Assembly (NCBI GenBank): GCA_020427985.1
Contig: JAGQNR010000001.1
Location: 89,784-153,783 of the forward strand
Source: Candidatus Saccharimonadota bacterium
GTDB taxonomy: Bacteria; Patescibacteriota; Saccharimonadia; Saccharimonadales; UBA4665
Reading direction: 5' to 3'
Length of the DNA: 64,000 nucleotides
How positions within the stretch are numbered: position 1 is the first letter of the stretch; each line of letters starts with the position of its first letter. This document shows, piece by piece, positions 9,647 to 29,933 of this stretch. Made by a program: the position numbers and the translations under genes. The notes beneath the pieces are model-generated. The model had not been told where the DNA came from. It saw only the letters and a list, made by a program, of their open reading frames with translations, and did no database searches.

Positions 9647-9721
9647 GGCCTCATCGTCTAACGGTTAGGACACCAGGTTTTCATCCTGGCAACCGGGGTT
9701 CGATTCCCCGTGAGGTCACCA
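9647..9721 (+). tRNA. tRNA-Glu (anticodon UUC), CCA encoded
   Basis: Cloverleaf read by eye. Acceptor GGCCTCA/TGAGGTC, D-arm TCGTCTAACGGTTAGGACA, anticodon stem CCAGG/CCTGG with loop TTTTCAT (TTC), T-arm GGGGTTCGATTCCCC, 3' ACCA. Confidence 0.9.
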
Positions 9722-11394
9722 TACGTGGATAGAAATGCAGATTTCAGCTTGAACAGCTCGCTTACCTCTGGTGGCGAGCTTTTCAATTGAGTTCGATAAT
9801 CTATTTCTGCGTATGTTGGCTTTTTGTTAAATATAGCACCAAAATAGGTAGCTCTTTTAAGCGGATTACTGAGGCCGAGAAGCATTTCTGAGAGGTGTTC
9901 CATAATATATTTTGCATACATCAAAACTACTTCAAATTCGGCATCTAAATCGGGTTGTTTTGCTATCTCTATATCGAGCTGAGCAAGCTCCTTTTCTACG
10001 CTCACGATGTCCTCCTCTAAGAACTTTAGGGCTGATTCACTAGACAGAACTCGCATTCGGTCTACAGTGGATCGGATTTGACCTTCTAGGCTCTCACGAT
10101 GCTCTAGGCGGCGTTGGTTTGCTTCAAATTGGTCTGCTTGTCGATCTCTCCATAATTGGGCAATAGCATCGATTACGCTGTCGATATATTCAGGCTTGAT
10201 CGTAATGGTTCGAATAAATGATTCAATGGTTTCATCGAATTGGGGTTTGTTTACGCGGAAGTAGTGGCCGTGATTACTGCAATGATATGCCGGGTAATAT
10301 GTACCCATTTTGCCTTTGGAGGCACTACCAAGGAGCTGCTGACCACACGTGGAGCATCCCACGACCTGTTTATATGGGTATTCAGGGTTATATTCCTTTT
10401 TGAACTTCAGGTGATCAGGAACTTCCTTTGTTTTAATAGTAATCTCATTGGTACTACTAACCTCAACATGGATGCGTCCTCGGTTTGCTTCATTAAACAA
10501 ATCTACCGACACGATCCCATCAAATTGTGCTTTCACTGGTTTATCGTATGTCCACTTTTCGCAAATAATACCGCAATAGGTGAGTTTACTTGCGTAGCGG
10601 TCAATCATTTTGGCGGTCATTTTCTTACCTCCAAGGGTGCGACGAACCTTGGTACGGTCATATTTGTCTCTAACAAGGGTTGTTCGCGTTTTAAATCCCA
10701 TTGAATTGAGTTCATCTGCTATCTGTTTGTTCGTATACATGTGGCTGGCACGCATCTCAAATAGTTTTTCTATATAGATCGCCTCATCTTTTCTAGGTTT
10801 AAGAATCAATCGCTTTCCATTCCTGGTGTCGACAGATTTACTTCGGAATCCGTAGAGTGGCTGACGCATCCAGTACCCGAGTTGGGTATAGCGAATCTCC
10901 GCACCGATCATACGGCTCATAATGTCACGCATTTCATCCTTGGCGCGCTCTGCCTCTAGGTATTCAGATTTCTGGGTAGGGTTGAACTCGCTCCAGTAGT
11001 ATTTGAAGCCGACGTGTTCAAGTGTGTTGATCTGACTCTTGCCGATAACCCCGTACATGTCTTCAAGGGCGATACCCATAGTCGTAAGTTGCTTCTTGAG
11101 TGGGGAGTAGTAATCGCCACCACCACGTGTAAAGCGGTCAATCGATTTAATGAGGACGACTTGGATACCTTTGCCTTTGTCTTTACAGGCGTCAATGACT
11201 TTCTGCATTGGCTGGAACTCATGCGAAGCCGACTCCATCAGAATAATGGTGTCTATGATGACGATGTTGTGTGCCTTGGCGTAAGATTCACCTTGCTCTC
11301 GTTGAGCTTCCGGTGAATCACCATCCAGACCTTGTTTGTCCGACGATACGCGGATGGCTAATAGGCCGATTCGTGGTTCGTAACTAGGCAACAT
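9658..11394 (-). CDS. large serine recombinase (integrase)
   Basis: 578 aa. Resolvase-type N-terminus with catalytic Ser (LLAIRVSSDKQG), a recombinase domain, zinc ribbon CSTCG...HCSNHGH and a C-terminal coiled coil. The last 64 nt are antisense to tRNA-Glu. Confidence 0.9.
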   Translation of the reverse strand: MLPSYEPRIGLLAIRVSSDKQGLDGDSPEAQREQGESYAKAHNIVIIDTIILMESASHEFQPMQKVIDACKDKGKGIQVVLIKSIDRFTRGGGDYYSPLKKQLTTMGIALEDMYGVIGKSQINTLEHVGFKYYWSEFNPTQKSEYLEAERAKDEMRDIMSRMIGAEIRYTQLGYWMRQPLYGFRSKSVDTRNGKRLILKPRKDEAIYIEKLFEMRASHMYTNKQIADELNSMGFKTRTTLVRDKYDRTKVRRTLGGKKMTAKMIDRYASKLTYCGIICEKWTYDKPVKAQFDGIVSVDLFNEANRGRIHVEVSSTNEITIKTKEVPDHLKFKKEYNPEYPYKQVVGCSTCGQQLLGSASKGKMGTYYPAYHCSNHGHYFRVNKPQFDETIESFIRTITIKPEYIDSVIDAIAQLWRDRQADQFEANQRRLEHRESLEGQIRSTVDRMRVLSSESALKFLEEDIVSVEKELAQLDIEIAKQPDLDAEFEVVLMYAKYIMEHLSEMLLGLSNPLKRATYFGAIFNKKPTYAEIDYRTQLKSSPPEVSELFKLKSAFLSTYGDLTGNRTPVARMKTWCPNR

Positions 11395-11863: not shown

Positions 11864-12097
11864 TTACTCTCCGCAGATTTCGCACGGAACTGTATGGTCA
11901 ATGATGAGACGTAAGTCTTCATCGGGTGTTTCTTGTAATGTGTCTTGTAGGTCGTAATACCTACATGCACAAACCTCTTCAATAGCTTGTGCCTCAAGCT
12001 CTTCGCGACTAAGTTTGTCATTGATAACAATGTCTAAACCGTGCTCTTTTGCGTACTGCTCAAGCTGCTTTTTTTGCTCTTCCTCAGACTTGTTCAT
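11864..12097 (-). CDS. small acidic hypothetical protein
   Basis: 77-aa ORF with SD (GGAGGG) upstream. It contains four Cys (CACR...CEIC). No family recognised. Confidence 0.5.
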   Translation of the reverse strand: MNKSEEEQKKQLEQYAKEHGLDIVINDKLSREELEAQAIEEVCACRYYDLQDTLQETPDEDLRLIIDHTVPCEICGE

Positions 12098-12290
12098 ATA
12101 CCCTCCATTCTAGTACACTTTGTAGTTTCTAGCCGAATTGTTAAGGCACCGGTTACTTATTCATAACCCTACTTATATACTACTCCATGTATTGGTATTA
12201 TTCAATACTTTTAGGCTATTTTGTACTATAAAAAAGGTATATCCCGATATATACCATCTAACACCTATATTACCTCTGTTTATTCTTGTA

Positions 12291-12338
12291 CTTTTTCTCT
12301 CTTTACTATATATAAATATATAGAAGAGAAGGAAGAAG
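12291..12338. repeat. imperfect inverted repeat in an AT-rich gap (candidate oriT/operator)
   Basis: Central palindrome CTATATAT-AA-ATATATAG (12306-12323) is flanked by a pyrimidine arm (12291-12305) that pairs with a purine arm (12324-12338). It lies 35 nt upstream of the replication-relaxation-like gene. Confidence 0.25.
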
Positions 12339-12373
12339 AGTGAGTGTGTAGGTAAAATTGGAAGTATTGTGAT

Positions 12374-13195
12374 ATGTCAGACAAACTCATTACATTAAAA
12401 CAAGGACAAATAGACGTATTAGAATTGCTGTATAAATACAGGTTTAGCAGTCGTCAGTTGATACTTGAAAGTATGGGTGAAGGTAGTGGTACAGACTTTA
12501 ATCTATATAAGAAACTAGAAGTCCTCATTAAACACGGATTAGTCTTTAAACGCCACGAGCCGCGTCAAAAACTGCTGGGTGTGCCATTTGCTTACTCGCT
12601 CACTCCAAAGGGCGTCAAAGCCCTTCAAACGCTGCCACAACATGACCATATATCGGACTCCATCATCAAAGGCTGGTATCGAAATAAAACGGTAGACCAG
12701 AAGTTCGTCAACCGCACCATAGCTATCCATAAATACACCAACCTGCTCAACAGGTTTTATCCATCCATAAAAGTCTTTACGCAACGTGACCTCGTGAATT
12801 TCTTCTATTTTCCTCCGCACCTTCCCGATGCGGTACTGTCCCTCCCATTAGAAGATGGCAGTTCATTGCGTTACTTCTTCGATATCATACCGTCAGGAAT
12901 GCCCAGAAAAGCCCTCGATGGTAAACTCATGAACTACTGCACCTTTTTCGATCTAGGTGGCTGGAAAGTCACCAAAAGTGACAATCCTGCAATCCTCCTT
13001 GTTGCAAGTAATGCCCGTGCTGAACGGCAACTGCAATATATCGCCCGTGCACGCTTGCAACGCTATGATGAACTCGACCTCCGTATCTTCACCACAACCG
13101 TGCAAGCACTTGCCAATATGAACGATGAGGGACTCATTTGGACTCGCGTTGACGATACAGACGAACCCCTCGAACTCACTCAGTTGCTCGGCTAA
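12374..13195 (+). CDS. replication-relaxation family-like winged-helix protein
   Basis: 273 aa. The N-terminal pattern LKQGQIDVLELLYKYRFSSRQL...LYKKLEVLIKHGLVFKR...YSLTPKGVKAL resembles Replic_Relax proteins. The assignment is by eye only. Confidence 0.5.
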   Translation: MSDKLITLKQGQIDVLELLYKYRFSSRQLILESMGEGSGTDFNLYKKLEVLIKHGLVFKRHEPRQKLLGVPFAYSLTPKGVKALQTLPQHDHISDSIIKGWYRNKTVDQKFVNRTIAIHKYTNLLNRFYPSIKVFTQRDLVNFFYFPPHLPDAVLSLPLEDGSSLRYFFDIIPSGMPRKALDGKLMNYCTFFDLGGWKVTKSDNPAILLVASNARAERQLQYIARARLQRYDELDLRIFTTTVQALANMNDEGLIWTRVDDTDEPLELTQLLG

Positions 13196-13275: not shown

Positions 13276-13752
13276 TTAGTTATGGGCATCTACCTGCACA
13301 AGCCACAGGTTCTTTGGATTCTTGAGGTAATACTCAAGTCCTTTCTCACTGATAACACTTTCACCACCGGGGCCAAATAGCTGACAGGTATTGCCATGGT
13401 AGCCACTTGCCTTAGAGAACTGGTAGCGTGACAGGTAATGTCCGTCTACTCGCTCAAACTCTTCGTTGTATATCTGCTCATCGGAGTAGTTAGCTAACAT
13501 CAGGCGAACTGTTTCCATCGTCTGCTTAAACTCATCGAATTGACCTTCCATAGCAGCCACAGCAGATGCTTGTGACTTCTTGGTGCTCAATTTCATGGGC
13601 TGCCAACAATCTTCCCACCGGCTTTCTTCTGCGGTGTAACTATACCAATCAAATTCGTGCCATTCCACCAAGTCATCCATGGTAGATTCTGCCACGTCTC
13701 GTGCTTCGGCGGCATCCGGTGCTTCAACTATTAATCGTACTAAGTAATGCAT
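13276..13752 (-). CDS. acidic hypothetical protein (leading-region cargo)
   Basis: 158-aa ORF downstream of DUF3768 in the same operon. Trp/Glu/Asp-rich. No family recognised. Confidence 0.6.
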   Translation of the reverse strand: MHYLVRLIVEAPDAAEARDVAESTMDDLVEWHEFDWYSYTAEESRWEDCWQPMKLSTKKSQASAVAAMEGQFDEFKQTMETVRLMLANYSDEQIYNEEFERVDGHYLSRYQFSKASGYHGNTCQLFGPGGESVISEKGLEYYLKNPKNLWLVQVDAHN

Positions 13753-13821: not shown

Positions 13822-14145
13822 TTAGTGCTCCTCTGCGAGATAAACGGTGAGTACCCGTTCCACTTCATCACTGAGAGGATCGGCCCAGACTTCGAATCCT
13901 GGATCGTAGTAATCTATCTTCCAGAAAATCTTTTTACCTTCCCATTCCAGAGAACCAAAGTCATGCTCTCCGTAGGGATCGTTGTCTTCTGAGAAATCCG
14001 TGTAGTCTCGGACTGCTCGTATCAACCCCAAGACATCTTGGAGATTGAAGACTCCTTGTGAAACACTCATTGTTTCACCTTGGCGGAACTTGTCGTTCCT
14101 CTGAGCTATCAACTCAGCTTTGGTTGGTGCTTCTGTAGGTTTCAT
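13822..14145 (-). CDS. DUF3768-family protein
   Basis: 107 aa. NDPYGEHDFGSLEWEGKKIFWKIDYYD matches the DUF3768 signature seen on plasmids and ICEs. A strong SD AAGGAGGG lies 6 nt upstream. Confidence 0.7.
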   Translation of the reverse strand: MKPTEAPTKAELIAQRNDKFRQGETMSVSQGVFNLQDVLGLIRAVRDYTDFSEDNDPYGEHDFGSLEWEGKKIFWKIDYYDPGFEVWADPLSDEVERVLTVYLAEEH

Positions 14146-14171
14146 AGAACCCTCCTTGCTTTACGAGAGGG

Positions 14172-14336
14172 CTTCCTGCCTCTCTGTCATCAGGGCTCGG
14201 GATGAATCCAAACGTGTCAGGGTGGAGATTCCCCTTAAAATATTCAATTAAAAGAAAAATGATTCATATTTTAGGGGCTGAATACTACCTTGATGCGTTT
14301 GGTTCACCCGTATACTGAAAAGACAGAGGGAGGAAG
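14172..14336 (+). promoter_or_regulatory. structured hairpin element copy A (candidate Frpo-like ssDNA promoter)
   Basis: Long imperfect hairpin. Base stem is 14172-14188 / 14322-14336. Internal helices include CCAAACG/CGTTTGG. Apical stem is CCCCTTAAAATA/TATTTTAGGGG. The right arm carries TTGATG (14290-14295) - 15 nt - TATACT (14311-14316). G-T pairs favour the plus strand. Confidence 0.5.
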
Positions 14337-14409
14337 AACTTTATATCAAGACCCAATTCTTGTGATCATGAAATTAAGAGCAGTTTAGCGTCATACTCAG
14401 GACAAGAAT

Positions 14410-14709
14410 CTAGTAGGCGCTTACCGGCCTATCTTGTGGCATCTCGGCAAGCTCATCGACGCAGTCGAATGCTTGCATTTGCTGCCAGTAGTGCTCCCGA
14501 AGCTGTTTGGCTAGACGGACAAGTTTCTTGTCGTCACGCCAGTTCGCTACGGTGCAGTCATTAGCCACTGCACCTAGCAAACCGCCTCCCAGGTAGTTCT
14601 GGAAGGCGCTCAGGAATTCATCTTCGTAGCCGTAGTTAGTGAGGTCTAGCTCGCAACCACCGCCACGATACTCATACCGCTCGCGTGTGATGTGTTCTGT
14701 AATGTTCAT
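14410..14709 (-). CDS. small hypothetical protein
   Basis: 99-aa ORF with a 4-nt ATGA-type overlap with the upstream ORF. No family recognised. Confidence 0.55.
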   Translation of the reverse strand: MNITEHITRERYEYRGGGCELDLTNYGYEDEFLSAFQNYLGGGLLGAVANDCTVANWRDDKKLVRLAKQLREHYWQQMQAFDCVDELAEMPQDRPVSAY

Positions 14710-14897
14710 AGGACTTCATCCTCCTCGTTAAGTACATGGTCTTGGGTAAGTCCCTGGTGAGAGACGCTATCGGTAACGTTACCGTCTGCGTCTAGCCACA
14801 CCTGGACAAAGAACGGCTCTTTGTACCAGCCGTTATCTTTAGCAATTTTCGCCCAGAATTGGCGGCATTGCTCGATAGTCAAAGAGGAGGCGCTCAT
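14706..14897 (-). CDS. small acidic hypothetical protein
   Basis: 63-aa ORF with 4-nt overlaps on both sides, which suggests translational coupling. Confidence 0.5.
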   Translation of the reverse strand: MSASSLTIEQCRQFWAKIAKDNGWYKEPFFVQVWLDADGNVTDSVSHQGLTQDHVLNEEDEVL

Positions 14898-15196
14898 CGC
14901 ACCTCCTCCGTGTTGGCTTCGACAACCTCGATCCAGTCGATGCTATCGAATGCCTGTTGTAACAGGTCTTGCCACAGGCACGGTGTATCGATTTCACCGT
15001 TCAGTTGCTCCTGTAGGCACATCTTTAGCCACTCGGCACTCTGCCAAGCAGCTTTTTGGCTTGCTATCGCTTCCATCAGGAATCGGTAGCTACCCTCGTC
15101 ATTGGTCAACCAGAGATTGGCTAACCATGTTTCGCGGTTACTCCACCCGTTGAACTCGGTGGATACAGTTTGTTTTTCTTGTGTCGCGTAAGTCAT
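14894..15196 (-). CDS. small Trp-rich acidic hypothetical protein
   Basis: 100 aa with motif NGWSNRETWLANLWLTNDEGSY. SD AAGGAG lies 7 nt upstream. It is the first gene after hairpin copy B. Confidence 0.6.
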   Translation of the reverse strand: MTYATQEKQTVSTEFNGWSNRETWLANLWLTNDEGSYRFLMEAIASQKAAWQSAEWLKMCLQEQLNGEIDTPCLWQDLLQQAFDSIDWIEVVEANTEEVR

Positions 15197-15202
15197 TTCT
15201 TA

Positions 15203-15374
15203 CTCCTTTACTTTACGTAACGGAGTCGCTACACGGGGTCGCATGGCAAATGCGTCAAGGCTGGAGATTCCCCTTGAAGATACCTGAAATATAATTATTC
15301 ATCTTCATGGGATGAATACTACCTTTACGTGTTTGCTCGACCCGTATACTGAGACATTACGTGAAGTGAGGAGA
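15203..15374 (+). promoter_or_regulatory. structured hairpin element copy B (candidate Frpo-like ssDNA promoter)
   Basis: Same architecture as copy A. Base stem is 15203-15220 / 15357-15373. Apical stem is CCCCTTGAAGAT/ATCTTCATGGG, with compensatory changes relative to copy A. TTTACG (15324-15329) - 15 nt - TATACT (15345-15350). Confidence 0.5.
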
Positions 15375-15636
15375 TTATTAAATAATCATTTTCCTGTACA
15401 ATAGTCAGCGGAAGATTCGTGTTTCGGCAGCTTTTGCGAGGGAGCAGGAGTCTTCTTTTTATTAAATCAGAGCTACCGAGATGGCTACGAGTGCGACTAC
15501 TGCTAGCTTCCTGCGCACCTGGTTCCTACCAACCCCACTACAAGATACATCTTCCGAGTTTTAATAATGAACAATACATTGTCAGGTTACGGGTGGGTGC
15601 TAAATTATAGGCTAATTATTAACCAGTGCACGCATC

Positions 15637-15882
15637 CTAGACATCAATAGTGTCGATTGCATTGGCAAGTTCGATATCCTTACTGGTGATGGTATCAGCT
15701 GATTCATGCGTGATAAGCCAGATATACACCACATTCCATTCATTTTCCCATCGTGGATGGTGATTATGTCTATTTGCCACGGCAGCCACTTTTGTAAAGA
15801 ATGCCCAAGCCTCATCGAAATCTTTGAACTCAAAGCGCTTATATAGACCGGCCGGTGAATGTTCCCAAGTATCTGTACTCAT
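15637..15882 (-). CDS. pterin-4-alpha-carbinolamine dehydratase (PCD/DCoH family)
   Basis: 81 aa. FKDFDEAWAFFTKVAAVANRHNHHPRWENEWNVVYIWLITHE...ITSKDIELA matches the PCD signature. Confidence 0.85.
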   Translation of the reverse strand: MSTDTWEHSPAGLYKRFEFKDFDEAWAFFTKVAAVANRHNHHPRWENEWNVVYIWLITHESADTITSKDIELANAIDTIDV

Positions 15883-17246
15883 ACGGTCTCGTTCTTCTCA
15901 GCTATATTAATTAGTCGCGTAATGGCAATTGCGAAAGCTGCCTCATTGAGCGTAAGTTCGTACTGCTTGGCATACTCATAGGCGTCTTGTATGGCTTTCG
16001 TTAAGTAAGTGGCCATTCTTGCATTGACGTCTAATTCTGTCCAGCTGGTATTGTCCTTGTTTTGTAGCCACTCTAGGTAGCTGACGATCACGCCACCGGC
16101 GTTAGCAATAATGTCAGGGATAACGACCGTTTTATCCTTCGCCAATATTTCTTGCGCCTCATTCGTTACGGGTCCATTTGCCATTTCTACTATATAGTCT
16201 GCCCGTAGTGTATTGACGTTGTCCACTGTGACTGTTTCTTCAAAACCCGCCAGTACTAACACATCTACGTCAAGTGTCAGCAACTCATCGTTGGAGATAA
16301 TATTCACATCAGTATCTTCATAGTCTTTGAAGCGACCTCGAGCTGATTTATATGCTTGTAGCTTGGTTGGATCAAGACCTTTATCGCAGTGCACAGTAGC
16401 CTCAGAGTCACTGGCGGCTACCAGTACCCAATCAGGGTGCTCGGCTTGAACTACTGTTCCAAAAAACAAACCAACGTTACCAAAGCCCTGAATGGCATAC
16501 CGTATCTTGCGGTTATCTTGATGTAAGCGCAGTAGCTCGCTTAGTACAACAACCCCTCCACGACCAGTAGCAGCTTCACGGCCTAGACTGCCGCCATTGG
16601 CAATACTTTTACCTGTAAAGCTGGCTTTAGTAGTGTCACCAGTTAGTTTTTCGTATTCATCAACCATCCAGTCAATAATCTGGGCGTTTGTGTTGACGTC
16701 TGGAGCGGGTACATCTTGATCCGGGCCAATATGGGGGTGGAGATGGCGAACATATTGACGACTAATCTCTTCTAGTTCTTGGTCGGTGACAGTACGCGGG
16801 TCAAATGCGACACCACCCTTACCACCACCCATAGGGATGTCAACGGCAGCAGCTTTTAGGCTCATAAAAGTTGAGTGATAGTGAATCTCGGTCGTGCTGT
16901 CGTCTACTTTTACAAAGTCCATGCGTTCAATTGATACATGACCACGCTCCGGCATGCCAAGGAATTCAAATGTCCAGATAATGCGTTCATTTGTGGCAAC
17001 TTCGTGGTAGCTGCCGCAAAAATCATATTCATTTCCCTCAGGGTCTTTTTCGGCGATGTGCCACGAACCGCCGGTTTTGCCGTCGTAGTACTTAACTAGT
17101 ACTTCATTGCCACGCATAAACCACTTGGTGAATAAATCTTGGTTAACATGTGCTTCAAACACTTTTTCTAGGGGTGCGTTTATACTCACCAAACCCTCTA
17201 TATTTTGCGTTGAATCCTCGGGTACAGTTACAGTTAATGTTGCCAT
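15879..17246 (-). CDS. chimeric protein: SRPBCC/AHSA1-like domain fused to an N-terminally truncated Glu/Leu/Phe/Val dehydrogenase
   Basis: The first ~130 aa are AHSA1-like (INAPLEKVFEAHVN...GGSWHI...CGSYHEVATNERIIWTFEF). The sequence then runs directly into the GDH core IPMGGGKGGVAFDP, GFGNVG, ANGP and NAGGVIVSYLEWLQN. The GDH N-terminal substrate-binding segment is absent. Confidence 0.8.
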   Translation of the reverse strand: MATLTVTVPEDSTQNIEGLVSINAPLEKVFEAHVNQDLFTKWFMRGNEVLVKYYDGKTGGSWHIAEKDPEGNEYDFCGSYHEVATNERIIWTFEFLGMPERGHVSIERMDFVKVDDSTTEIHYHSTFMSLKAAAVDIPMGGGKGGVAFDPRTVTDQELEEISRQYVRHLHPHIGPDQDVPAPDVNTNAQIIDWMVDEYEKLTGDTTKASFTGKSIANGGSLGREAATGRGGVVVLSELLRLHQDNRKIRYAIQGFGNVGLFFGTVVQAEHPDWVLVAASDSEATVHCDKGLDPTKLQAYKSARGRFKDYEDTDVNIISNDELLTLDVDVLVLAGFEETVTVDNVNTLRADYIVEMANGPVTNEAQEILAKDKTVVIPDIIANAGGVIVSYLEWLQNKDNTSWTELDVNARMATYLTKAIQDAYEYAKQYELTLNEAAFAIAITRLINIAEKNETV

Positions 17247-19234: not shown

Positions 19235-22200
19235 ATGAAGATAATGCGAGAGACTTTATACCTGTTTTGGAGGGTGTTCATGCGGATTTTTTCTGAGCTG
19301 AAATTTATTGCTGCAGCTGGTGCATTGGTGGTTGAGTGTTTTGTGTGGCCCGTGCTCAAATATATACTGACGCCGATAGCGCGGCTTACGAGGTTACTGC
19401 GGCGAGTACTATTTGCCCCTGCTCGGGCTCGGTTGGTACAGAAGTTCCGCATACTGCAAAAATGGGATACTTGGAAATATCGTGCGCAATTCCGAACTGC
19501 CTCGACCTCGCTCGTGGCAATGGTGTTTGTCGTATCTATTGTGCAATCCTCCCTCATGGCAGCTCCCGACCTCAATGATACCTGGAACTTCAATACGCCA
19601 GCAGACTACACCATGAGCAGTGGTGTTGAGGTTGTGGGTGGGCAGGCTCGACTCAAGGCCCAAAACTACACGAATGATGCCAATACCAGTGCCTTGTACC
19701 ATTTTGATGAAGTAGGTGGCACAAATGTCACTGATTCCTCGGCACATAATAATACCGCAACCCTATCGGGCGGTTCGTTTACTACTGGCAATTTGAACAA
19801 TGCCGTATCGCTAAACGGCATACAAGATTTTGCTTCCGCAAGCAGTTCACCATCGCTGCAGCTTGGACAACAACAAACTATTGAAGGCTGGACAAAGTTC
19901 AATACTTCATTCAATGCCGGTTCATCATCACACCGACAAGGTATCATCGATAAGGGTGACTACCAGTTGTACTATGATAATGAAACTGGCAAGGTCACCT
20001 ATGAGCTTGCCGACGCAAACGCCAACACTTGGACGCCTGCAGGTGGGCGTGACGTCAAGAATAGTTGGGATACTAATGGTAAGCGCTCGGTCAATGCTTC
20101 TGTTAAGATGGGTAGTGATATATATGCGGGTATTGGTGTTGATGTTGGTGATGCGGAAGTTTGGAAATGGGATGGTACGTCCTGGTCCCGGATTGGTGGC
20201 GGCGAAACAAGCCTGAACGGAAGTTGGAACTCAAATACATATGAGGGTGTCTACTCACTAGCGAGTGATGGCACAAACTTGTATGCTGGGCTTGGCAGTG
20301 GCAGTGGCGAGGGTGAAGTCTGGCGCTGGAACGGAGCAAGCTGGACCAAGATCGGCGGTGATAGCTTGAACAGTAGCTGGACTAATTATGCCGAAACAGT
20401 TTACACCCTTGATTACTACAACGGGAAACTATATGCGGGCATTGGTTTCTCTAGGAATGATGCTGAAGTGTGGGAATGGAATGGTAGCTCCTGGGCTAAG
20501 GTTGGCGGCGATGGTGTCAATGCTAGCTGGAACACGGTATACGAATCAGTTGCGAGCATGACTCATGACGGCGGTAACTTGTATGTTGGACTTGGCGCAA
20601 GTGCTGGCGATGCCGAGGTCTGGCAATGGAATGGTACAACTTGGACTAAGATCGGCGGTGATAGCTTGAACAGTGGCTGGGACGCAAGTTTTGAAACCGT
20701 CTACACCCTAAAGCATTATGGTGGCAATCTCTATGCTGGCCTTGGGCTGACGGCTAACGATGCCGAGGTCTGGCGTTGGAACGGAACAAGCTGGGCTAAG
20801 ATCGGCGGTGATAGTGTAAATAGTAGCTGGGGCTCGGGCTACGAATATGTCACTGGAATAGCCTGGGATGGTGCCAACCTCTACGCCGGGCTTGGTGGCA
20901 GTAACGGTGATGGTGAGGTCTGGCGTTGGAACGGAACAAGCTGGGCTAAGATCGGCGGTGATAGTCTAAACGGTGGCTGGACAGCTGCGCAAGGTGACAT
21001 CGTGAAAACCCTCTTGTACGACAATGGCACCCTGTTCTCTGGTAATTATGATGCTGCTGGTGATGGATTTATGTGGACATATGATGGCACGAGCTGGACC
21101 CTCATGGGTGGTGGCTATGTTAAAAAGAGTTGGGGAAACTACGGCATTGGATCGGTTAATGTTATGCAAAAAGTTGGAGATTATCTCTATGCTGGGCTTG
21201 GTAACTCGGCCGGATCTGCTCTGGTATGGCAGTTTGACGGTACAACCTGGCAGCTGATAGGTGGTCAAGGAATCAATAATAGCTGGTCGGCTGTTACCTA
21301 TGAACAAGTTATGAGTATGGCGAGTTTTCAGGGCAAGCTCATCGTAGGTTTGGGAACATCAGCTAATGACGCAGAGGTATGGGAATGGAACGGAACAAGC
21401 TGGACTAAGATTGGTGGTGATAGTCTAAACGGTGGCTGGACGGCAAACTTCGAAGAGGTTGATGCTATGGCGGCAACCGACTCAGAGCTCTATGTCGGGC
21501 TTGGTGCGAGTACTGCGGACGGTGAAGTTTGGCGCTGGAACGGAACAAGCTGGACTAAGATTGGTGGTGATAGTCTAAACGGTGGCTGGACTAATTATGT
21601 CGAACGAGTGGCCTCGATAGCAATTCATAACGGCAATATTTATGCGGGCCTGGGTAGCAGTACTGGCGACGGGGAGATCTGGGAATGGAACGGAACAAGC
21701 TGGACTAAGATTGGTGGTGATGGTGTAGGCGGTAGCTGGAGTACTACTACCTACCAGCAGATTGAATCAATGATTTCATATGACGGCAAGCTGTATGCTG
21801 GGCTTGGTAATGTCACTGGCGCTGGCACGCTGTGGCAATGGGACGGTAGTGCTTGGACGCAGATTGGTGGTGATGACATAAATGGTAGCTGGACAACAGG
21901 TACCTACGAACGAGTGAAGACGCTTGCCGTCTATAACGGCGACCTCTATGCTGGTCTTGGCTACAGTACTGGCGACGGTGAAGTTTGGCGTTTGAGCGGC
22001 AATAGCTGGACCAAGATCGGTGGTACAGGACTTAATAACGGGTGGGGTGGCGACATAGAAGAGATTGGTTCGTTCAGTGCCTACAAAGGCAAATTCTACG
22101 TTGGAACTGGCTTGAGTGCAAACGCTGATGCTCGGGTATGGAGTTGGGGTAATAATGCTTTCCTACAATCCGCTACTAGCACGTTTGATACGGATTGGCA

Positions 22201-25200
22201 CCATGTTGCCGCAACCTATGATGGCGCTGCCATGAAGCTATACATTGACGGTGCACAGAACGCATCTACTGCGAGTAATATCGTTGTTGCGAATAGTACG
22301 CGCAACTTGCTGATTGGTAAGACCTACGGCGGCCGAGAATTCGGAAAACCTGTCGGCATGTTTGATGGGAAGTTAGACGAAATTCGGTTAAGCTCAGTTG
22401 CACGCACTGCATTTACGACCAATCCGTACGCCGATTCGCCGCAAACTATTCAGCTCGCTACCGCTGTACGAAAATCTGGTGTTTGGCACTGGGATACACT
22501 CTCTCACACCGACAGCGGTAATGGCGGAACTATTATGTACCGCCTGTCTGCAGACGATGGAGTTACATGGAAATATTGGGATGGTATTGGTTGGGCGACA
22601 TCCAATTCGCTTACTGAAGTGAACACTCCAGCGGTTATCACTGCGAACTTCGCGAGCTTCCCGGTTACCTTCGATGGGTTACTCTGGCAGGTCGTTATGG
22701 ATGGTGACGGCACGCAGCAGGTTGGCATCAATGGGGTATCAGCAGAGGCTACTTCAGATACGACAGACCCAAATGGCAACCCGAGTAGTATTGTCGGCTA
22801 TCGTGCCAACGGCGGCAGTACAATCGCACCAAATGGATGGACAAATGGATCATCACCATACTTCACATGGACAGCTGGCGCTGATGCAGAAGGTGGAGTG
22901 CTAGGCTACTGTGCATACCTTGGTACTGATCAAAACGCAGATCCGACAACCACAAAGGGGCAGCTGGGAACGAGCCCGGTTGCTACAGGTAGCACATGCC
23001 AGTTTATTGTTAGTGGTACATCGCTAGACCTTGCAACGCCAGGACTGCTCGGTTCCCCGCTCGTTACCAGCAACGACATGCTGTATCTAACGCTACGAAC
23101 CATCGATAAGGCTGGCAATATCACCAATACTTCTACGCAGTTTGCTTTTAAGTTTGATAATACGCCGCCAACAAACCCGGGCTTCATTACCGCGCCATCT
23201 GGCTTTATTAATACCAAGGATGTCGAGATGTCGTGGGCGACGAGTGGCGGGAGCGCACCAAGTGACGCAAATTCCGGTATTGCCGGACTGCAGTACCGCA
23301 TAGGCTCGGGTGGTACCTGGTACGGTGACAGTCACAGTGGTACTGGTGATAGTTCGGACCTTCTTGCCAACGATGGCGTGTATGCAACCATACCAACACC
23401 AGATCATACCAATCTCGCAGAAGGTATCAACACGGTGTACTTCCGAACATGGGATCAGGCTGGTAATTACACAAATACCTACGCAACCGCCACACTGAAA
23501 ATTAATACCAATGGTGCTCCGAGTGAGCCGGTCAATCTGATTGCAACGCCAACATCGAACACAGTCAACTCGTTTGGCTTCAACTGGGATACGCCTGTTA
23601 CTTATGTGGGTAACCAGAATAACATCACGTATTGCTACGTAGTGAATACACTTCCATCAGCAAGTACCTGCGCCTACACAGGAGCCGGCTCAACCGAATT
23701 AACGGTTGGACCATATGCCACACAACCAGGTAGTAACACACTGTATGTAGTAGCTAAGGATGAGTCAGGTAACATCAACTACGCAAACTATGCATCGGTC
23801 AACTTTACGGCAAATACTGCCGCCCCTGGCGTGCCGCTGAATACCGATATCGTGGATGTATCAATCAAGAATACGAGCAACTGGCGCTTGGCGCTCACGT
23901 GGGACCAGCCAACGAGTGGCGGCAACGTAAGCTCGTACCGAGTCTACAGATCAACCAATAACACTACATTTACGCAGGTTGGCACAAGCTCAAGCACCAC
24001 CTATATCGATGCCGGACTAACGCAGCAGACCTACTACTACAAGGTTGCGGCCTGTGATAACACGAATAATTGTGGTGCTGCCGGTACTGTAGTGAGCGCC
24101 CTACCTACAGGTAAGTTTACGAGCCCCGCAGCACTTATTAGCGGGCCTGATGTTAGTAATGTGACAACCAAAAAGGCCACCGTTACATGGACGACCGACC
24201 GTGGAAGCGATTCTAAGATAGCTATTGGAACTCAAAGTGGTCAATACGGTTCTTCAGAAGTAGGTAATTCGACACAGACCTCAAGCCATGACATCCAACT
24301 CGACAATCTTGCTCCGGGCACGACATACTACTTTAAGGTCAAGTGGACGGATGAAGATGGCAATACTGGCAGTAGCCAAGAGCAGACATTCACGACTGCT
24401 CCAGCACCATCCATCAAGGAGGTAACTGTCGACGGCGTTAACCTGTCAAGTGCGAATGTATCATTTACCACGAAAGGTGCCGTCAAAGCGCGAGTCTACT
24501 ATGGTACAAGTGAATCATTCGGCGGCCTTAAATCAGTCAATACATCGCCTGACGAATCACGCTACCAGGTAGCCCTCAGTGATTTGGCCGATGGTACCAA
24601 GTACTACTTCATGGTGAGCACCTTTGATCAAGAAGGTGCCGAGTACAGAGGTAATATCATCACCTTCACAACACCCGCTCGCCCACGCATTACCAACCTG
24701 CGCTTCCAGCCAGTAGCTGGTGAGCCAACGAGTACGCAGCGCGTTACATGGGATACGAATGTTGCCTCAACCAGTTCAATCAGTTATGCTACCGCAAATG
24801 GACAGCCAAAAGAACTGCAGGATTCTAAACTAACGACGAGTCATGAAGTGACAATTCGTAGGCTGCAAGACGACAGCATCTATACATTGGTGGCCTCAAG
24901 CCGAGATGAAGCGGGTAATCTCGCGACCTCAGACCGTCAGCAGTTTAGGACAGCGCTCGACACGCGCCCAGCAAAGATTAGTGACATAGTTGTAGAAACA
25001 TCTATTCGAGGATCTGGCTCAGAAGCTCGAGGGCAGATTGTGGTATCGTGGAGAACTGATGAGCCTTCAACCAGTCAAGTTGCCTACTCAGAGGGCTCTG
25101 GTGCAACAATATTCAATAGCAAATCCGCAGAAGATGCGCGTTTGACGACGGAGCACATCGTGATCATATCTGACTTGCCGACCTCGCGGGTATACAGCGT

Positions 25201-25330
25201 CCAGCCGCTTTCTAAAGATAGTGCTAAAAATGAGGGTAGCGGCGAAACTCAGACTGCTATCATCAGCCGCGCCTCAGACAGCGCTATCACGGTAATATTT
25301 AATAGCTTAAAATCAATATTTGGATTGTAG
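19235..25330 (+). CDS. giant (2031 aa) membrane-anchored surface protein: LamG-like domain interrupted by ~14 propeller-type repeats, followed by FN3-type domains
   Basis: N-terminal hydrophobic segments. The LamG N-half is ALYHFDEVGG...TIEGWTKF...DKGDYQLYYDNETGKVTYEL. About 14 repeats of ~50 aa follow (EVWRWNGTSWTKIGGDSLNGGW...LYAGLG). The LamG C-half is DWHHVAATYDGAAMKLYIDG...FDGKLDEIRLSS. The C-terminal half holds many FN3-like modules (KATVTWTTDRGSDSKI...GTTYYFKV). Confidence 0.9.
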   Translation: MKIMRETLYLFWRVFMRIFSELKFIAAAGALVVECFVWPVLKYILTPIARLTRLLRRVLFAPARARLVQKFRILQKWDTWKYRAQFRTASTSLVAMVFVVSIVQSSLMAAPDLNDTWNFNTPADYTMSSGVEVVGGQARLKAQNYTNDANTSALYHFDEVGGTNVTDSSAHNNTATLSGGSFTTGNLNNAVSLNGIQDFASASSSPSLQLGQQQTIEGWTKFNTSFNAGSSSHRQGIIDKGDYQLYYDNETGKVTYELADANANTWTPAGGRDVKNSWDTNGKRSVNASVKMGSDIYAGIGVDVGDAEVWKWDGTSWSRIGGGETSLNGSWNSNTYEGVYSLASDGTNLYAGLGSGSGEGEVWRWNGASWTKIGGDSLNSSWTNYAETVYTLDYYNGKLYAGIGFSRNDAEVWEWNGSSWAKVGGDGVNASWNTVYESVASMTHDGGNLYVGLGASAGDAEVWQWNGTTWTKIGGDSLNSGWDASFETVYTLKHYGGNLYAGLGLTANDAEVWRWNGTSWAKIGGDSVNSSWGSGYEYVTGIAWDGANLYAGLGGSNGDGEVWRWNGTSWAKIGGDSLNGGWTAAQGDIVKTLLYDNGTLFSGNYDAAGDGFMWTYDGTSWTLMGGGYVKKSWGNYGIGSVNVMQKVGDYLYAGLGNSAGSALVWQFDGTTWQLIGGQGINNSWSAVTYEQVMSMASFQGKLIVGLGTSANDAEVWEWNGTSWTKIGGDSLNGGWTANFEEVDAMAATDSELYVGLGASTADGEVWRWNGTSWTKIGGDSLNGGWTNYVERVASIAIHNGNIYAGLGSSTGDGEIWEWNGTSWTKIGGDGVGGSWSTTTYQQIESMISYDGKLYAGLGNVTGAGTLWQWDGSAWTQIGGDDINGSWTTGTYERVKTLAVYNGDLYAGLGYSTGDGEVWRLSGNSWTKIGGTGLNNGWGGDIEEIGSFSAYKGKFYVGTGLSANADARVWSWGNNAFLQSATSTFDTDWHHVAATYDGAAMKLYIDGAQNASTASNIVVANSTRNLLIGKTYGGREFGKPVGMFDGKLDEIRLSSVARTAFTTNPYADSPQTIQLATAVRKSGVWHWDTLSHTDSGNGGTIMYRLSADDGVTWKYWDGIGWATSNSLTEVNTPAVITANFASFPVTFDGLLWQVVMDGDGTQQVGINGVSAEATSDTTDPNGNPSSIVGYRANGGSTIAPNGWTNGSSPYFTWTAGADAEGGVLGYCAYLGTDQNADPTTTKGQLGTSPVATGSTCQFIVSGTSLDLATPGLLGSPLVTSNDMLYLTLRTIDKAGNITNTSTQFAFKFDNTPPTNPGFITAPSGFINTKDVEMSWATSGGSAPSDANSGIAGLQYRIGSGGTWYGDSHSGTGDSSDLLANDGVYATIPTPDHTNLAEGINTVYFRTWDQAGNYTNTYATATLKINTNGAPSEPVNLIATPTSNTVNSFGFNWDTPVTYVGNQNNITYCYVVNTLPSASTCAYTGAGSTELTVGPYATQPGSNTLYVVAKDESGNINYANYASVNFTANTAAPGVPLNTDIVDVSIKNTSNWRLALTWDQPTSGGNVSSYRVYRSTNNTTFTQVGTSSSTTYIDAGLTQQTYYYKVAACDNTNNCGAAGTVVSALPTGKFTSPAALISGPDVSNVTTKKATVTWTTDRGSDSKIAIGTQSGQYGSSEVGNSTQTSSHDIQLDNLAPGTTYYFKVKWTDEDGNTGSSQEQTFTTAPAPSIKEVTVDGVNLSSANVSFTTKGAVKARVYYGTSESFGGLKSVNTSPDESRYQVALSDLADGTKYYFMVSTFDQEGAEYRGNIITFTTPARPRITNLRFQPVAGEPTSTQRVTWDTNVASTSSISYATANGQPKELQDSKLTTSHEVTIRRLQDDSIYTLVASSRDEAGNLATSDRQQFRTALDTRPAKISDIVVETSIRGSGSEARGQIVVSWRTDEPSTSQVAYSEGSGATIFNSKSAEDARLTTEHIVIISDLPTSRVYSVQPLSKDSAKNEGSGETQTAIISRASDSAITVIFNSLKSIFGL
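20027..22163 (+). repeat. in-frame tandem array of ~150-nt coding repeats (propeller blades)
   Basis: The 150-nt periodicity includes perfect copies: a 51-mer at 20765-20815 = 20915-20965, and a 56-mer at 21386-21441 = 21536-21591 (35 nt of it again at 21686-21720). Confidence 0.85.
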
Positions 25331-27331: not shown

Positions 27332-27502
27332 AAGATACGACATGAGCGGATCAATAAATAATAAGTTGTAGAATAGTCTACGAATCTTACAGATACAGAA
27401 AATTCTTATGTTTTCGTTCAAATTGCTTATGCCGCTTGCATTCCTGCAGGGGTGTGCTTTATGTTCAGGTCACAAGCCAACTATTTTTACACGGAGGGTC
27501 AC

Positions 27503-27847
27503 ATGATCAGAAGTTCCACAAAATTCAAAATAGTCGGGCTCATAGTGGCTCTCGGGATACCGTTTGTGGTAAGTCCTCCCGTGTTTGCCGCGGGAGGTGA
27601 CATTTCACAGGTTGAATCGTTCATCCGAAGTGTCATCACCACCATTGCAGGTTTAGCCGGTCTCATTGCGACCGGCTTTCTTGTTTATGGAGGCCTGATT
27701 TACATTACGAGCTCGGGTAATCCCGAACGGCTCGATGGCGCAAAGAGGACATTGTTTTTCTCTGCGATGGGCCTCGCGATCGTTATTGGAGCATTCGTGC
27801 TCAGTAACATCGTCACGACACTCGCTACCAATGCATTCGGTAAGTAG
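27503..27847 (+). CDS. VirB2/TrbC-like pilin-type small membrane protein
   Basis: SD GGAGGG before ATG 27503. Signal-like N-terminus ending PPVFAAGG, then two hydrophobic helices separated by YITSSGNPERLDGAKR. Confidence 0.55.
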   Translation: MIRSSTKFKIVGLIVALGIPFVVSPPVFAAGGDISQVESFIRSVITTIAGLAGLIATGFLVYGGLIYITSSGNPERLDGAKRTLFFSAMGLAIVIGAFVLSNIVTTLATNAFGK

Positions 27848-27894
27848 CAAAACCAAAACCAGTATCTAGAGGGTAAACACTAATCAGGGGGTAT

Positions 27895-29430
27895 ATGGAA
27901 AGCGTTCTTTTCTCAGCACTCACGTACTTCGGCGATACTTCCGCTGCTGTATCCGCCATGAGGGACTACGTGACTCCAACAATTCGGACATTGGCGGCTC
28001 TGGCTGGCATCGCGTCAGTCTTCTTCCTTGTCAACGGTGGCTACTTGTACATGACGAGTGCCGGTAAGCCGGATACTCTGGAACACGCCAAACGAGTGAT
28101 ACGTAATGCACTGCTCGGATTACTCATTGTCCTTGCAGCGGTGACAATAACTTCAATCCTTTCAAACGCATACGGTACACCACATAACCCGAATGGCGCT
28201 ACACTGCCAAGTCTGGAGGCCATTCCGCCTAAAGATGTCGGTTCTGGACTCATCGACGTGCTCATCAATGCCGTCGTCGGGTTCTTGAATGCAATCATCC
28301 AAGCGATTGCGACTCCATTCCTTGGGGCGTTAGATTACTTCACAAAAGCCACGCCACTCATGGCTGAAAACTCCTCCGTGTTCAACCTGTGGCTAGCGAT
28401 TGTCGGCATTACTGACGTGCTATTTGTGGTCATTCTGGGGCTCATAGGCCTCCACGTCATGAGTGCCGCAAGCTTCGGCTTCGATGAGATTGAGTTCAAA
28501 CACTTATTGCCACGTATTGGGTTAGTGTTCCTACTGCTCAACACCTCCATATTTGCCATTGACGGTATCATTGAGCTATCCAATGCCCTGATTACCGCCA
28601 TCGGCAAAGTATCCGGGGCGAGTTCGGTCTGGACGACACTAACATCCGTCTTCAAAGAAGCAGGAGGTCAAGGACTGGCCTCGCTTCTGGTAATGCTCGC
28701 ATTCCTGATCTTTTCGGTAATACTCCTGGTCTACTACGTTGGACGTCTCGTGACCCTGTTTATTGGGGCGGTGTTATCACCGCTCGTAATACTCGTATGG
28801 TTAGTCCCGGGATTCCGGGACTTTTCAGAGGCGGCCATAAAGACCTACATCACCACGATATTCACGCTGTTCGTCCATGTGGTCATTCTGATGCTTGCCG
28901 CCTCGCTATTCACAGGCATGAGCTCGACCAGTGGCAATGATGTACCAGATACTCTCATGTCCATGATTGTTGGACTGGCTACAGTTATGGCACTCCTGAA
29001 GACTCAGGGAGTCATGATGCAGTTCTCCTACGTCAGTGGGGGTGCACGGAATGCTCGTAAACTTGGTGGCCAATTCATGAACGGCGTGAGTTACATGACC
29101 GGTAAAGGTAAGGTCGCGGCTGGCGCAGTCGCAAGCAAAACTGAGGGCGTGAAACGAACTCGGGCTATGGCTAGCACCGAAGCAACAGCAGTTCGCACCG
29201 GTCGTCGTCAGACCATGAACTACACCACCAAAAAAGGAAATGACGCGACCTATTCTGTTAAGCCAAACCGCAGCAGTAGCCAAAACAAGGGAGTTTCAGT
29301 ATCGAAGAAAACGGGAACGACCTATCCAGCGCCAAAAGTGACACCTCGCAGCAATGCCCAGCCAATGAAAACGCCCTCCACTTTCCCGAGCAACCACCCG
29401 AAGAATAATTCCAAGGATATAACACTATGA
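27895..29430 (+). CDS. polytopic T4SS membrane protein: pilin-like N-terminal module fused to a VirB6/TrbL-like multi-TM domain
   Basis: The first ~95 aa are paralogous to 27503..27847 (LAGIASVFFLVNGGYLYMTSAGKPDTLEHAKR versus LAGLIATGFLVYGGLIYITSSGNPERLDGAKR). At least 6 TM helices follow, then a basic Ser/Thr/Lys-rich tail. Confidence 0.6.
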   Translation: MESVLFSALTYFGDTSAAVSAMRDYVTPTIRTLAALAGIASVFFLVNGGYLYMTSAGKPDTLEHAKRVIRNALLGLLIVLAAVTITSILSNAYGTPHNPNGATLPSLEAIPPKDVGSGLIDVLINAVVGFLNAIIQAIATPFLGALDYFTKATPLMAENSSVFNLWLAIVGITDVLFVVILGLIGLHVMSAASFGFDEIEFKHLLPRIGLVFLLLNTSIFAIDGIIELSNALITAIGKVSGASSVWTTLTSVFKEAGGQGLASLLVMLAFLIFSVILLVYYVGRLVTLFIGAVLSPLVILVWLVPGFRDFSEAAIKTYITTIFTLFVHVVILMLAASLFTGMSSTSGNDVPDTLMSMIVGLATVMALLKTQGVMMQFSYVSGGARNARKLGGQFMNGVSYMTGKGKVAAGAVASKTEGVKRTRAMASTEATAVRTGRRQTMNYTTKKGNDATYSVKPNRSSSQNKGVSVSKKTGTTYPAPKVTPRSNAQPMKTPSTFPSNHPKNNSKDITL

Positions 29431-29933
29431 AAATAACCGTAGTACCTGCCCAAGTCACCACCGTCGAAGACAGGATTATGGGATCCTTGAGCTTATCCCA
29501 GCTCATGATAATCCTGCTACCAGTCTTCGTAAGCGCTGCACTGTTCACCATACTGCCACCGGCTATGGGATCTAGTATCTACAAGTACGTGATCATGGGC
29601 ATCCTGTTTGTCATCTGTCTCATTCTGAGTATCCGAATCAAGGGCAAGATTGTTGCCCTCTGGATTGTGACCATTCTCCGCTACAACTTACGTCCGAAAT
29701 ACTACTTGTTCAATAAAAACGTCACAACGCTTCGAGCTGACTATGCCGAGATTAAACAGGCAGAAGCAAAGAAAGAATCTGCCAAAGAATCGACTAAAGC
29801 AGCTATGCCACGACTGGGCACACTGGAAACTGCCAGAGTCCTTGCCACCATTGAAAATCCTGCATCCAATCTGAGATTCGAAACCACAAAGAAAGGAGGC
29901 TTACATGTTCGCCTTACAGAAGTCGAAGAGTAA
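29427..29933 (+). CDS. VirB3/PrgI-like small T4SS membrane protein
   Basis: 168 aa with two adjacent TM helices and a charged tail. It sits directly upstream of VirB4 and has an ATGA overlap with the previous gene. Confidence 0.5.
   Translation: MKITVVPAQVTTVEDRIMGSLSLSQLMIILLPVFVSAALFTILPPAMGSSIYKYVIMGILFVICLILSIRIKGKIVALWIVTILRYNLRPKYYLFNKNVTTLRADYAEIKQAEAKKESAKESTKAAMPRLGTLETARVLATIENPASNLRFETTKKGGLHVRLTEVEE

Follow-up and report, generated by a model that had tools for sequence, protein, structure and literature searches.

Paired strand-specific hairpins in front of small acidic genes of a Saccharimonadota mobile island are probable Frpo-like promoters for single-stranded DNA

The stretch of 64,000 nucleotides analysed here (hereafter the window) belongs to contig JAGQNR010000001.1 (positions 89,784 to 153,783 of the forward strand) of the Candidatus Saccharimonadota assembly GCA_020427985.1, and it contains, within an island of approximately 6 kb, two long imperfect hairpins, A and B, each of which precedes a small minus-strand operon headed by a gene for a DUF3768 protein (hairpin A) or a DUF7249 protein (hairpin B). 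We propose that these hairpins are probably promoters that act on single-stranded DNA (ssDNA) and drive small acidic early genes, comparable to the Frpo promoters of the F plasmid and belonging to a non-homologous class. An Frpo-like promoter is the simplest account of the hairpins because the structure is selected on the template strand, the -10 box lacks a complement next to a -35-like box that is held in duplex, transcription would exit through the hairpin base into the ribosome-binding site, and one copy stands before each small operon of an integrative element that bears a putative relaxase gene. The original prediction made for this region from the bare sequence had already read the hairpins as Frpo-type promoters, and this reading is supported as the best explanation by strand asymmetry, covariation, sigma-70-like boxes, gene linkage and the mobile context. 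The two hairpins are:

14172-14336, plus strand (template strand of the gene to the left): hairpin A, long and imperfect; folds, with a covariance-model score of 172.8 bits on the plus strand versus 33.4 bits on the minus strand
15203-15373, plus strand: hairpin B, with the same core as hairpin A and a different base stem and apical stem; folds, with a covariance-model score of 150.2 bits on the plus strand versus 46.8 bits on the minus strand

Both strands of 14160-14345 and 15195-15380 were folded as ssDNA, with z-scores from 200 shuffles. The minimum-free-energy folds close with the pairs 14172-14336 and 15203-15373, which confirms two hairpins of approximately 165-170 nt at the places originally proposed. 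The plus strand reaches -38.8 kcal/mol (z -7.6) for hairpin A and -33.1 kcal/mol (z -6.7) for hairpin B, compared with -32.8 and -30.2 kcal/mol for the minus strand, and none of the 200 shuffles folds as well as the hairpins. Using RNA parameters, the plus and minus strands differ by -88.3 versus -65.2 kcal/mol in A and by -69.6 versus -61.0 kcal/mol in B. The core GAATACTACCTTnAnGnGTTTGnTnnACCCGTATACTGA of the right arm occurs exactly twice in the 64 kb, where none is expected by chance; the claim of a shared core thus stands for both copies, while the consensus written for it was inaccurate, as the left-arm motif contains a 1-nt insertion or deletion and the 'TC' of the right arm is found in copy B only. 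The folds bear out further details of the original prediction: the apical stems TAAAATA/TATTTTA in A and TGAAGA/TCTTCA in B pair and are separated by four compensatory differences, and the base stems, although unrelated in sequence between A and B, are paired in both. Of the G-T pairs named for the plus strand, 14220-14290 and 15214-15363 were recovered, whereas at 15209-15368 the minimum-free-energy fold has a bulge, to which the named pair is only an alternative.

The hairpins belong to a family. Homologues of the DUF3768 protein with 65-69% identity are encoded in a like module of hairpin, DUF3768 gene, relaxase-like gene and serine recombinase gene, and the hairpins beside them are recognisable, with a shorter apex and a perfect TATAAT. 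A search with the core pattern returned 18 loci in species-representative genomes, nearly all titled Candidatus Saccharibacteria or Saccharimonadales apart from one metagenome-assembled genome labelled Nomurabacteria, as well as 50 loci in metagenomes, of which approximately six are chance matches. The scan of viral contigs gave no match, and a phage element as the identity of the hairpins was rejected. A covariance model was built on 53 distinct copies and used to search for more, as the original prediction had suggested, which yielded approximately 90 copies in approximately 70 loci of Saccharibacteria/Patescibacteria, including approximately 15 distinct copies missed by the pattern; the proposed pairs are kept in these copies and covary. 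The usual state is two hairpin copies per element at a distance of 0.8-1.1 kb, as in the window. In more distant relatives (among them our loci L087, L090 and L101-L103), in which the DUF3768 protein is 52-56% identical, the architecture is kept and the stem sequences are different, and the relative in L090 is located within a cluster of type IV secretion system (T4SS), coupling-protein and Replic_Relax genes. No recognisable hairpin copy was found at the DUF3768 homologue of a Ktedonobacteraceae genome (L086).

The 3' arms of both hairpins carry boxes resembling those of a sigma-70 promoter:

14290-14295, plus strand: -35-like box TTGATG in the 3' arm of hairpin A, paired to 14215-14220 with three G-T pairs
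14311-14316, plus strand: -10 box TATACT in the 3' arm of hairpin A, with TATA in an internal loop opposite GGCT (14194-14197)
15324-15329, plus strand: -35-like box TTTACG in the 3' arm of hairpin B, paired
15345-15350, plus strand: -10 box TATACT of hairpin B, in a large internal loop

These are the boxes, with the 15-nt spacer between them, that had been named originally, and in the folds the -35-like box is paired, as had been described; the -10 box is unpaired, partly in A and fully in B. Across 68 distinct copies the -10 hexamer is TATAAT in 50, TATACT in 15, TACACT in two and TAAACT in one, i.e., the first T, the second A and the last T are invariant and the middle positions are free, a pattern that reads as the signature of a sigma-70 -10 element; distant relatives have TATCAT or TACAAT. 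At least four of the six -10 positions are unpaired in 54 of the 68 folds, and the box lies in an internal loop because the 5' arm opposite does not encode its complement. The -35-like box of the family is TTGATG, TTGATA, TTGAGG or TTGACG (consensus TTGA[T/G/C][G/A]) and is always paired. Opposite the 15-nt spacer, 67 of 68 copies have 17-18 nt in the 5' or template arm (14198-14214 versus 14296-14310 in hairpin A; alignment columns 57-74 versus 171-185), and one may speculate that these template-arm bulges tune the geometry for RNA polymerase. In the duplex form, the gene-sense strand would offer a -35-like CTGACA without a -10 box, and the plus strand a promoter with a 15-bp spacer that is directed away from the genes.

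The conservation of the structure was assessed with base pairs supplied by hand and checked in two alignments by controls in which the pairing partner was slid by 1-3 columns. RNAalifold recovered only 18 pairs from the raw MAFFT alignment, because base-stem types A and B differ in register and the apex varies in length. In the MAFFT alignment, which was made without structure from 53 copies, 92.4% of the cells pair compared with 38-51% for slid partners, the covariation score is 0.244 compared with 0.04-0.08, and 12 of 34 pairs have changed on both sides. In the model-fitted alignment of 68 distinct copies, 94.4% of the cells pair (slid partners 35-52%) with a covariation score of 0.291 (0.04-0.08), and 19 of 34 pairs show changes on both sides (slid partners 3-11), a number reached by none of 500 shuffles, although the shuffle figures are not probabilities since the sequences are related and were partly collected by pattern. 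Homologues therefore keep the pairs of the original prediction. The slid controls and the exchange of entire helices are the stronger argument: base stems come in two types (A and B), the apex is one of four modules with a length of 10-75 nt, and the middle stem is swapped between GGGTCG/CGACCC and GTGCCG/CGGCAC.

The structure is moreover specific to one strand. With DNA parameters, the template strand of the adjacent gene, corresponding to the plus sense in the window, folds more stably in 52 of 53 copies (mean -32.3 versus -27.7 kcal/mol), so that the energetic preference claimed for the two window copies extends to the family; with RNA parameters it does so in 50 of 53. The paired columns contain 232 G-T cells compared with 30 A-C cells; G-T is the majority state at several pairs and A-C at none. 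We conclude that the structure is selected on the template strand rather than in the duplex or in the mRNA, because a duplex palindrome predicts no such bias and a structure in the 5' untranslated region (5' UTR) of the mRNA predicts the opposite one. The excess of G-T over A-C thus speaks against an ordinary feature of double-stranded DNA, such as a palindromic operator, a recombination site, a terminator or a normal rightward promoter on the plus strand, an interpretation that in our view deserves very little credence. Approximately half of the hairpins do face a divergent gene on their other side (the other half abut the end of a co-oriented gene), and hairpin A, which follows the stop codon of the upstream gene, could terminate that transcript; yet neither window copy has a clear rightward gene, the divergent genes elsewhere have their own TGnTAnAAT promoter, a 15-bp spacer makes a poor duplex promoter, and the hairpin, imperfect, 165 nt long and lacking a T-run, does not qualify as an intrinsic terminator. 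There is next to no likelihood that the hairpin acts as a cis-regulatory element within the 5' UTR of a minus-strand mRNA that starts from a promoter upstream of the hairpin. The extended -10 element TGATATAAA noted earlier on the minus strand upstream of copy A is present at 14340-14348 and could serve as such a promoter, and the minus strand still folds well as RNA (-65 and -61 kcal/mol). However, in these 52 of 53 copies stability is lower for the strand of mRNA sense, plus-strand wobble pairs would turn into A-C mismatches in the mRNA, and the upstream minus-strand promoter is not conserved in the family.

A plus-strand transcript that forms a structured non-coding RNA and acts as an antisense regulator over the 5' ends of the DUF3768 and DUF7249 mRNAs would also show structure and G-U pairs on this strand and would account for the large asymmetry obtained with RNA parameters. 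Antisense regulators such as CopA, FinP and Sok are well known from plasmids. We nevertheless regard this explanation as highly improbable: the left side has no conserved plus-strand promoter and consists of the coding sequence of three unrelated genes, the conserved boxes are internal to the hairpin and, as duplex, would start an RNA only beyond it, and the conservation pattern of the -10 box is left unexplained. Rfam likewise has no family for the hairpins, as a search at E <= 10 gave only generic long-hairpin microRNA models with 27 bits compared with thresholds of 144-245.

The link between hairpin and gene is fixed. In 83 of 89 hits, the opposite strand carries, at a short and constant distance past the 5' base of the hairpin, a Shine-Dalgarno (SD) sequence with a start codon; most of the others reach the contig end. 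This agrees with the original prediction that the boxes are oriented out of the hairpin base into the genes. In the window, both hairpins end 24-43 nt upstream of the start codon of the minus-strand operon. The downstream genes belong to three unrelated families, encoding DUF3768-like proteins, DUF7249-like proteins and a 73-aa protein. The window operons, consisting of open reading frames (ORFs) on the minus strand, and their predicted leaders are:

14146-14189, minus strand: predicted 5' UTR of operon A, approximately 43 nt, with a likely start at approximately 14187-14189, 6-7 nt past the -10 box, and the SD sequence AAGGAGGG
13822-14145, minus strand: DUF3768 protein, 107 aa, pI 4.4 (Pfam 6e-23), gene 1 after hairpin A
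13276-13752, minus strand: DUF7995 protein, 158 aa, pI 4.6 (precomputed Pfam family), gene 2 of operon A
15197-15220, minus strand: predicted 5' UTR of operon B, approximately 24 nt, with a likely start near 15220 and the SD sequence AAGGAG
14894-15196, minus strand: DUF7249 protein, 100 aa, pI 4.1 (Pfam 6.9e-12), gene 1 after hairpin B
14706-14897, minus strand: ORF of 63 aa, pI 4.3, without known family, gene 2 of operon B
14410-14709, minus strand: ORF of 99 aa, pI 4.7, without known family, gene 3 of operon B

All five products are small and acidic (pI 4.1-4.7). AlphaFold2 models are confident for DUF3768 and DUF7249, with a predicted local distance difference test (pLDDT) score of 94 and 85, respectively; Foldseek comparison of these models with the PDB and BFVD gave no match at E <= 0.001, and searches of PHROGs, NCBIfam and PDB sequences returned nothing useful on the function of the downstream proteins. 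The predicted 5' end of the type-A mRNA (14155-14189, minus sense) contains a local stem-loop GAGAGG/CCTCTC that competes with the base stem of the large hairpin; it has a compensatory change in locus L030 (GAGCGG/CCGCTC), and a change in locus L031 pairs (G-U) only in the mRNA sense.

The fixed distance to SD and start codon across three unrelated gene families, together with two copies per element, one for each operon, also argues against the hairpins serving only as a single-strand origin (sso) or priming site, where RNA polymerase or primase would be recruited for a short primer and the position before genes would be incidental. A strand- and orientation-specific hairpin with promoter-like boxes is found in RNA-polymerase-dependent sso as well, an sso is known from an integrative and conjugative element (ICE) (PMC4595007), the island encodes a protein of the 'replication-relaxation' family, and Frpo itself primes DNA synthesis according to Masai and Arai (1997), as cited in PMC12672017. 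An ssoA-type origin, however, is characterised by the terminator-loop motif CS-6 (TAGCG[T/A]) and RSB, beside a dso and a rolling-circle rep gene, and CS-6 occurs in one of 71 copies and in neither window copy, which does not fit such an origin. Priming as the sole function is unlikely; it overlaps with the promoter reading and does not exclude it, and by analogy to what has been proposed for Frpo, the hairpins may additionally serve to prime the complementary strand.

The remaining features of the island are:

9647-9721, plus strand: tRNA-Glu(ttc), island boundary, overlapped by the 3' end of the serine-recombinase ORF
9658-11394, minus strand: large serine recombinase (Pfam Resolvase and Recombinase; PHROG integrase, 8.5e-35)
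between the serine-recombinase gene and the Replic_Relax-like gene, minus strand: three small ORFs
12291-12338, no strand assigned: candidate origin of transfer (oriT) or operator, a conserved inverted repeat with TATATAAATATATA at its centre, immediately before the MOBC-like gene
12374-13195, plus strand: putative MOBC-like relaxase of 273 aa (Replic_Relax, PD-(D/E)XK; weak Pfam match)

The plus strand is the template for nine of ten island genes, and the relaxase-like gene is the sole island gene encoded on it. The Replic_Relax-like protein of the window matches Pfam PF13814 weakly (5.7e-4), and the positional counterparts in L086, L088 and L090 are unmarked PF13814 matches. This family, whose fold is of the PD-(D/E)XK type (PMC3424549), is equated with the MOBC relaxase superfamily in Table 1 of PMC5357655. 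The TATATAAATATATA-centred inverted repeat, a candidate oriT or operator, is also present upstream of the Replic_Relax genes in L011, L017, L088 and L090. Near-identical strains lose similarity within the tRNA-Glu gene (9647-9714), and the DNA to its left varies between strains; because similarity stops inside the tRNA gene, this end of the island is a boundary or a hot spot of (tandem) insertion. Since all contigs with an identical Pterin_4a gene also carry the island, no empty site that would mark the right end of the island was found among them. The Pfam search revealed no Rep_1, Rep_2 or Rep_trans gene in the island, and no third hairpin precedes the recombinase operon or the relaxase gene, as folds of 12095-12375 are not significant (z -1.25 and -0.36). 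At the gathering threshold of Rfam 15, the curated-RNA matches in the window are limited to the tmRNA and two tRNAs. The 3' end of tRNA-Glu (9702-9720) and the apex of hairpin B (15266-15284) are identical at 15 of 19 positions; this similarity was considered as an att remnant and rejected, as the apex module occurs in many other copies, and it is probably due to chance.

Taken together, we propose the following mechanism. With only the plus strand of the island present, each segment of approximately 165 nt would fold into its long imperfect hairpin, and the likeliest occasion for this would be entry into a new cell by relaxase- and T4SS-mediated transfer; a single-stranded stage could also be reached if the excised circle replicates by the rolling-circle mode or if the DNA is taken up by competence. 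The 3' arm would then present the non-template strand of a sigma-70-type promoter (TTGAnn, 15-nt spacer, TAnAnT) and the 5' arm the template strand, with the -35-like box offered as duplex and the -10 box in a ready-made bubble for want of a complement on the 5' arm. Host RNA polymerase would initiate 6-7 nt past the -10 box, for which we infer from this geometry starts near 14187-14189 and 15220, read along the 5' arm, and exit via the hairpin base into the operon, i.e., DUF3768-DUF7995 behind hairpin A and DUF7249 with the 63-aa and 99-aa genes behind hairpin B. The hairpin RNA might in addition prime synthesis of the complementary strand. Once the DNA is double-stranded, the hairpin would be lost, the gene-sense strand would be left without a -10 box and the remaining promoter would face away, so that the early genes would be switched off. 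The single-stranded form would thus be a plus strand whose 5' end lies left of the early genes; these genes may constitute a leading region, with oriT to the left and the plus strand as the transferred one.

In the F plasmid, two copies with 92% identity, Frpo1 and Frpo2, head two early operons and are both needed for early expression (PMC9849209), and leading-region genes lie on the T-strand (PMC11541004). The window hairpins resemble Frpo1/Frpo2 of F and ssi1-3 of ColIb-P9/pESBL (class 1) in forming a long imperfect hairpin on the template strand of the downstream genes, in -35/-10 boxes rebuilt in a stem with a duplex form that is predicted to be off, and in the presence of at least two similar copies per element, each at the head of an operon of small establishment genes, which in the window are candidates (PMC9849209, PMC11541004, PMC12672017). 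They differ in size (approximately 165 nt compared with approximately 300 nt or more), in the 15-nt non-template spacer opposite 17-18 template nt, in their hosts (Saccharibacteria/Patescibacteria compared with Enterobacteriaceae), in the element (an integrative island of approximately 6 kb with serine recombinase and MOBC-like relaxase compared with a large MOBF/MOBP plasmid), and in the downstream genes (DUF3768 and DUF7249 compared with ssb, psiB or ardA). Sequence similarity is lacking: with the Frpo/ssi sequences from the supplement of PMC11541004, for which Samuel et al. used a BLAST threshold of E <= 1e-6 as family criterion (PMC11541004), blastn of both window hairpins against Frpo2 of F and Frpo1 and Frpo2 of ColIb-P9 gave no match at E <= 1e-3 and only chance words of 7-9 nt. 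A simple scan for promoter boxes returned no canonical -35/-10 pair from the Frpo sequences of the supplement, and our comparison makes no claim on the spacer or bubble geometry of Frpo. Because similarity to Frpo/ssi and the CS-6 motif of ssoA are both absent, we classify the window hairpins, as far as sequence comparison allows, as an analogue of Frpo and a new sequence class. That more than one such class can exist is in line with pESBL and F, which contain further ssDNA hairpin promoters without Frpo homology that were confirmed by 5' rapid amplification of cDNA ends (RACE) (PMC12672017). Those were found by homology-independent mining for hairpins upstream of early operons, a logic shared with the present analysis, whereas sequences and hosts differ and the support consists of 5' RACE and RNA-seq there and of sequence comparison here. 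The ssoA/ssoU origins of rolling-circle plasmids and the sso of ICEBs1 (PMC4595007, PMC5703833) are similar as strand- and orientation-specific hairpins with promoter-like boxes that are bound by host RNA polymerase on the displaced or transferred strand; in contrast, an sso makes a short primer uncoupled from SD and start codon, and each copy here is fixed before a gene. A second group of structures that act on one strand comprises integron attC sites and the ends of IS200/IS605-type elements, which require folding of one specific strand and have conserved unpaired bases. Those are substrates of tyrosine or HUH enzymes and are devoid of -35/-10 boxes or a fixed link to a start codon, and the recombinase of the island is a serine recombinase, which acts on duplex DNA.

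Several observations weigh against an Frpo-like promoter. The spacer between the -35-like and the -10 box is 15 nt in all 68 main-family copies, which is short for sigma-70 (among the distant relatives, the spacers of L101 and L103 measure 16 nt and those of L087 and L090 18-21 nt), and because of this spacer the -35 reading is weaker than the -10 reading; TTGAnn may not be a -35 element or not only a -35 element. The apex GTCAAGGTGGAG...CCTTGA is conserved beyond the need of a -35 box, which hints at a second binding partner at the apex, and the odd spacer leaves room for one as well. The covariation counts come from related sequences that were partly collected by a pattern fixing part of the core, and the model-fitted alignment is biased towards the structure. 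Moreover, if the repeat at 12291-12338 is oriT and the plus strand is transferred, the relaxase gene enters first, which is unusual. Finally, a survey (2025) found few relaxases in Patescibacteria and concluded that most of their T4SSs lack them and may not conjugate (PMC12102498).

The analysis also yielded observations on neighbouring sequences. Divergent neighbours to the right of the hairpins (e.g., L018, L021, L027, L032; 15393-15401 in the window) have TGnTA(T/C)AAT with an ATG 6-7 nt later, apparently an extended -10 promoter of the leaderless type that is common in these genomes. To the right of the island, a 455-aa protein with an AHSA1/START-like domain fused to a Glu/Leu/Phe/Val dehydrogenase is encoded at 15879-17246; a pterin-4a-carbinolamine dehydratase gene comes next. 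The gene at 19235-25330 encodes a probable surface protein of 2031 aa that combines Laminin_G, fibronectin-III and purple-acid-phosphatase-N domains and contains internal repeats with self-matches of 77% identity at 20.6-21.7 kb. A T4SS gene cluster on the plus strand (27452-35441) comprises T4SS_pilin/TrbL-like, VirB4/TraG-like ATPase and coupling-protein-like genes, and no adjoining relaxase was recognised. In L101/L102 (1-366 and adjacent), a few kb away from the module of hairpin and DUF3768 gene, a reverse transcriptase gene (RVT_1) and a bAvd-like gene lie beside a Fic gene, and this locus looks like a diversity-generating retroelement.

To our knowledge, experimental proof of ssDNA promoters is limited to IncF and IncI plasmids of enterobacteria. 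If our interpretation is correct, they would extend to the candidate phyla radiation in an unrelated sequence class, for which the comparative support is unusually clear in the form of covariation, strand-specific wobble pairs and a -10 box without complement. With about even confidence, we regard the hairpins as the first indication from sequence that Saccharibacteria harbour mobile elements with a single-stranded stage and a dedicated early-gene programme, which would imply conjugation or mobilisation driven by a relaxase, or entry as ssDNA, for example by competence. Hairpins before early genes of relaxase-bearing islands would argue for travel as a single strand, contrary to the view that the T4SSs of Patescibacteria mostly do not conjugate (PMC12102498), and the relaxases would be divergent MOBC-like proteins that fall under standard thresholds. 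The combination of a 15-nt non-template spacer with 17-18 template nt and a -10 box without complement might represent a general recipe for a promoter that works on ssDNA only, and would provide a compact part of approximately 165 nt for expression limited to single-stranded DNA. The analysis also names DUF3768, DUF7249 and DUF7995 as candidate establishment or anti-defence proteins. In uncultured organisms, the polarity of the transferred strand would be readable from the orientation of the hairpins, and the covariance model could then be used to mark the polarity of transfer in metagenomes.

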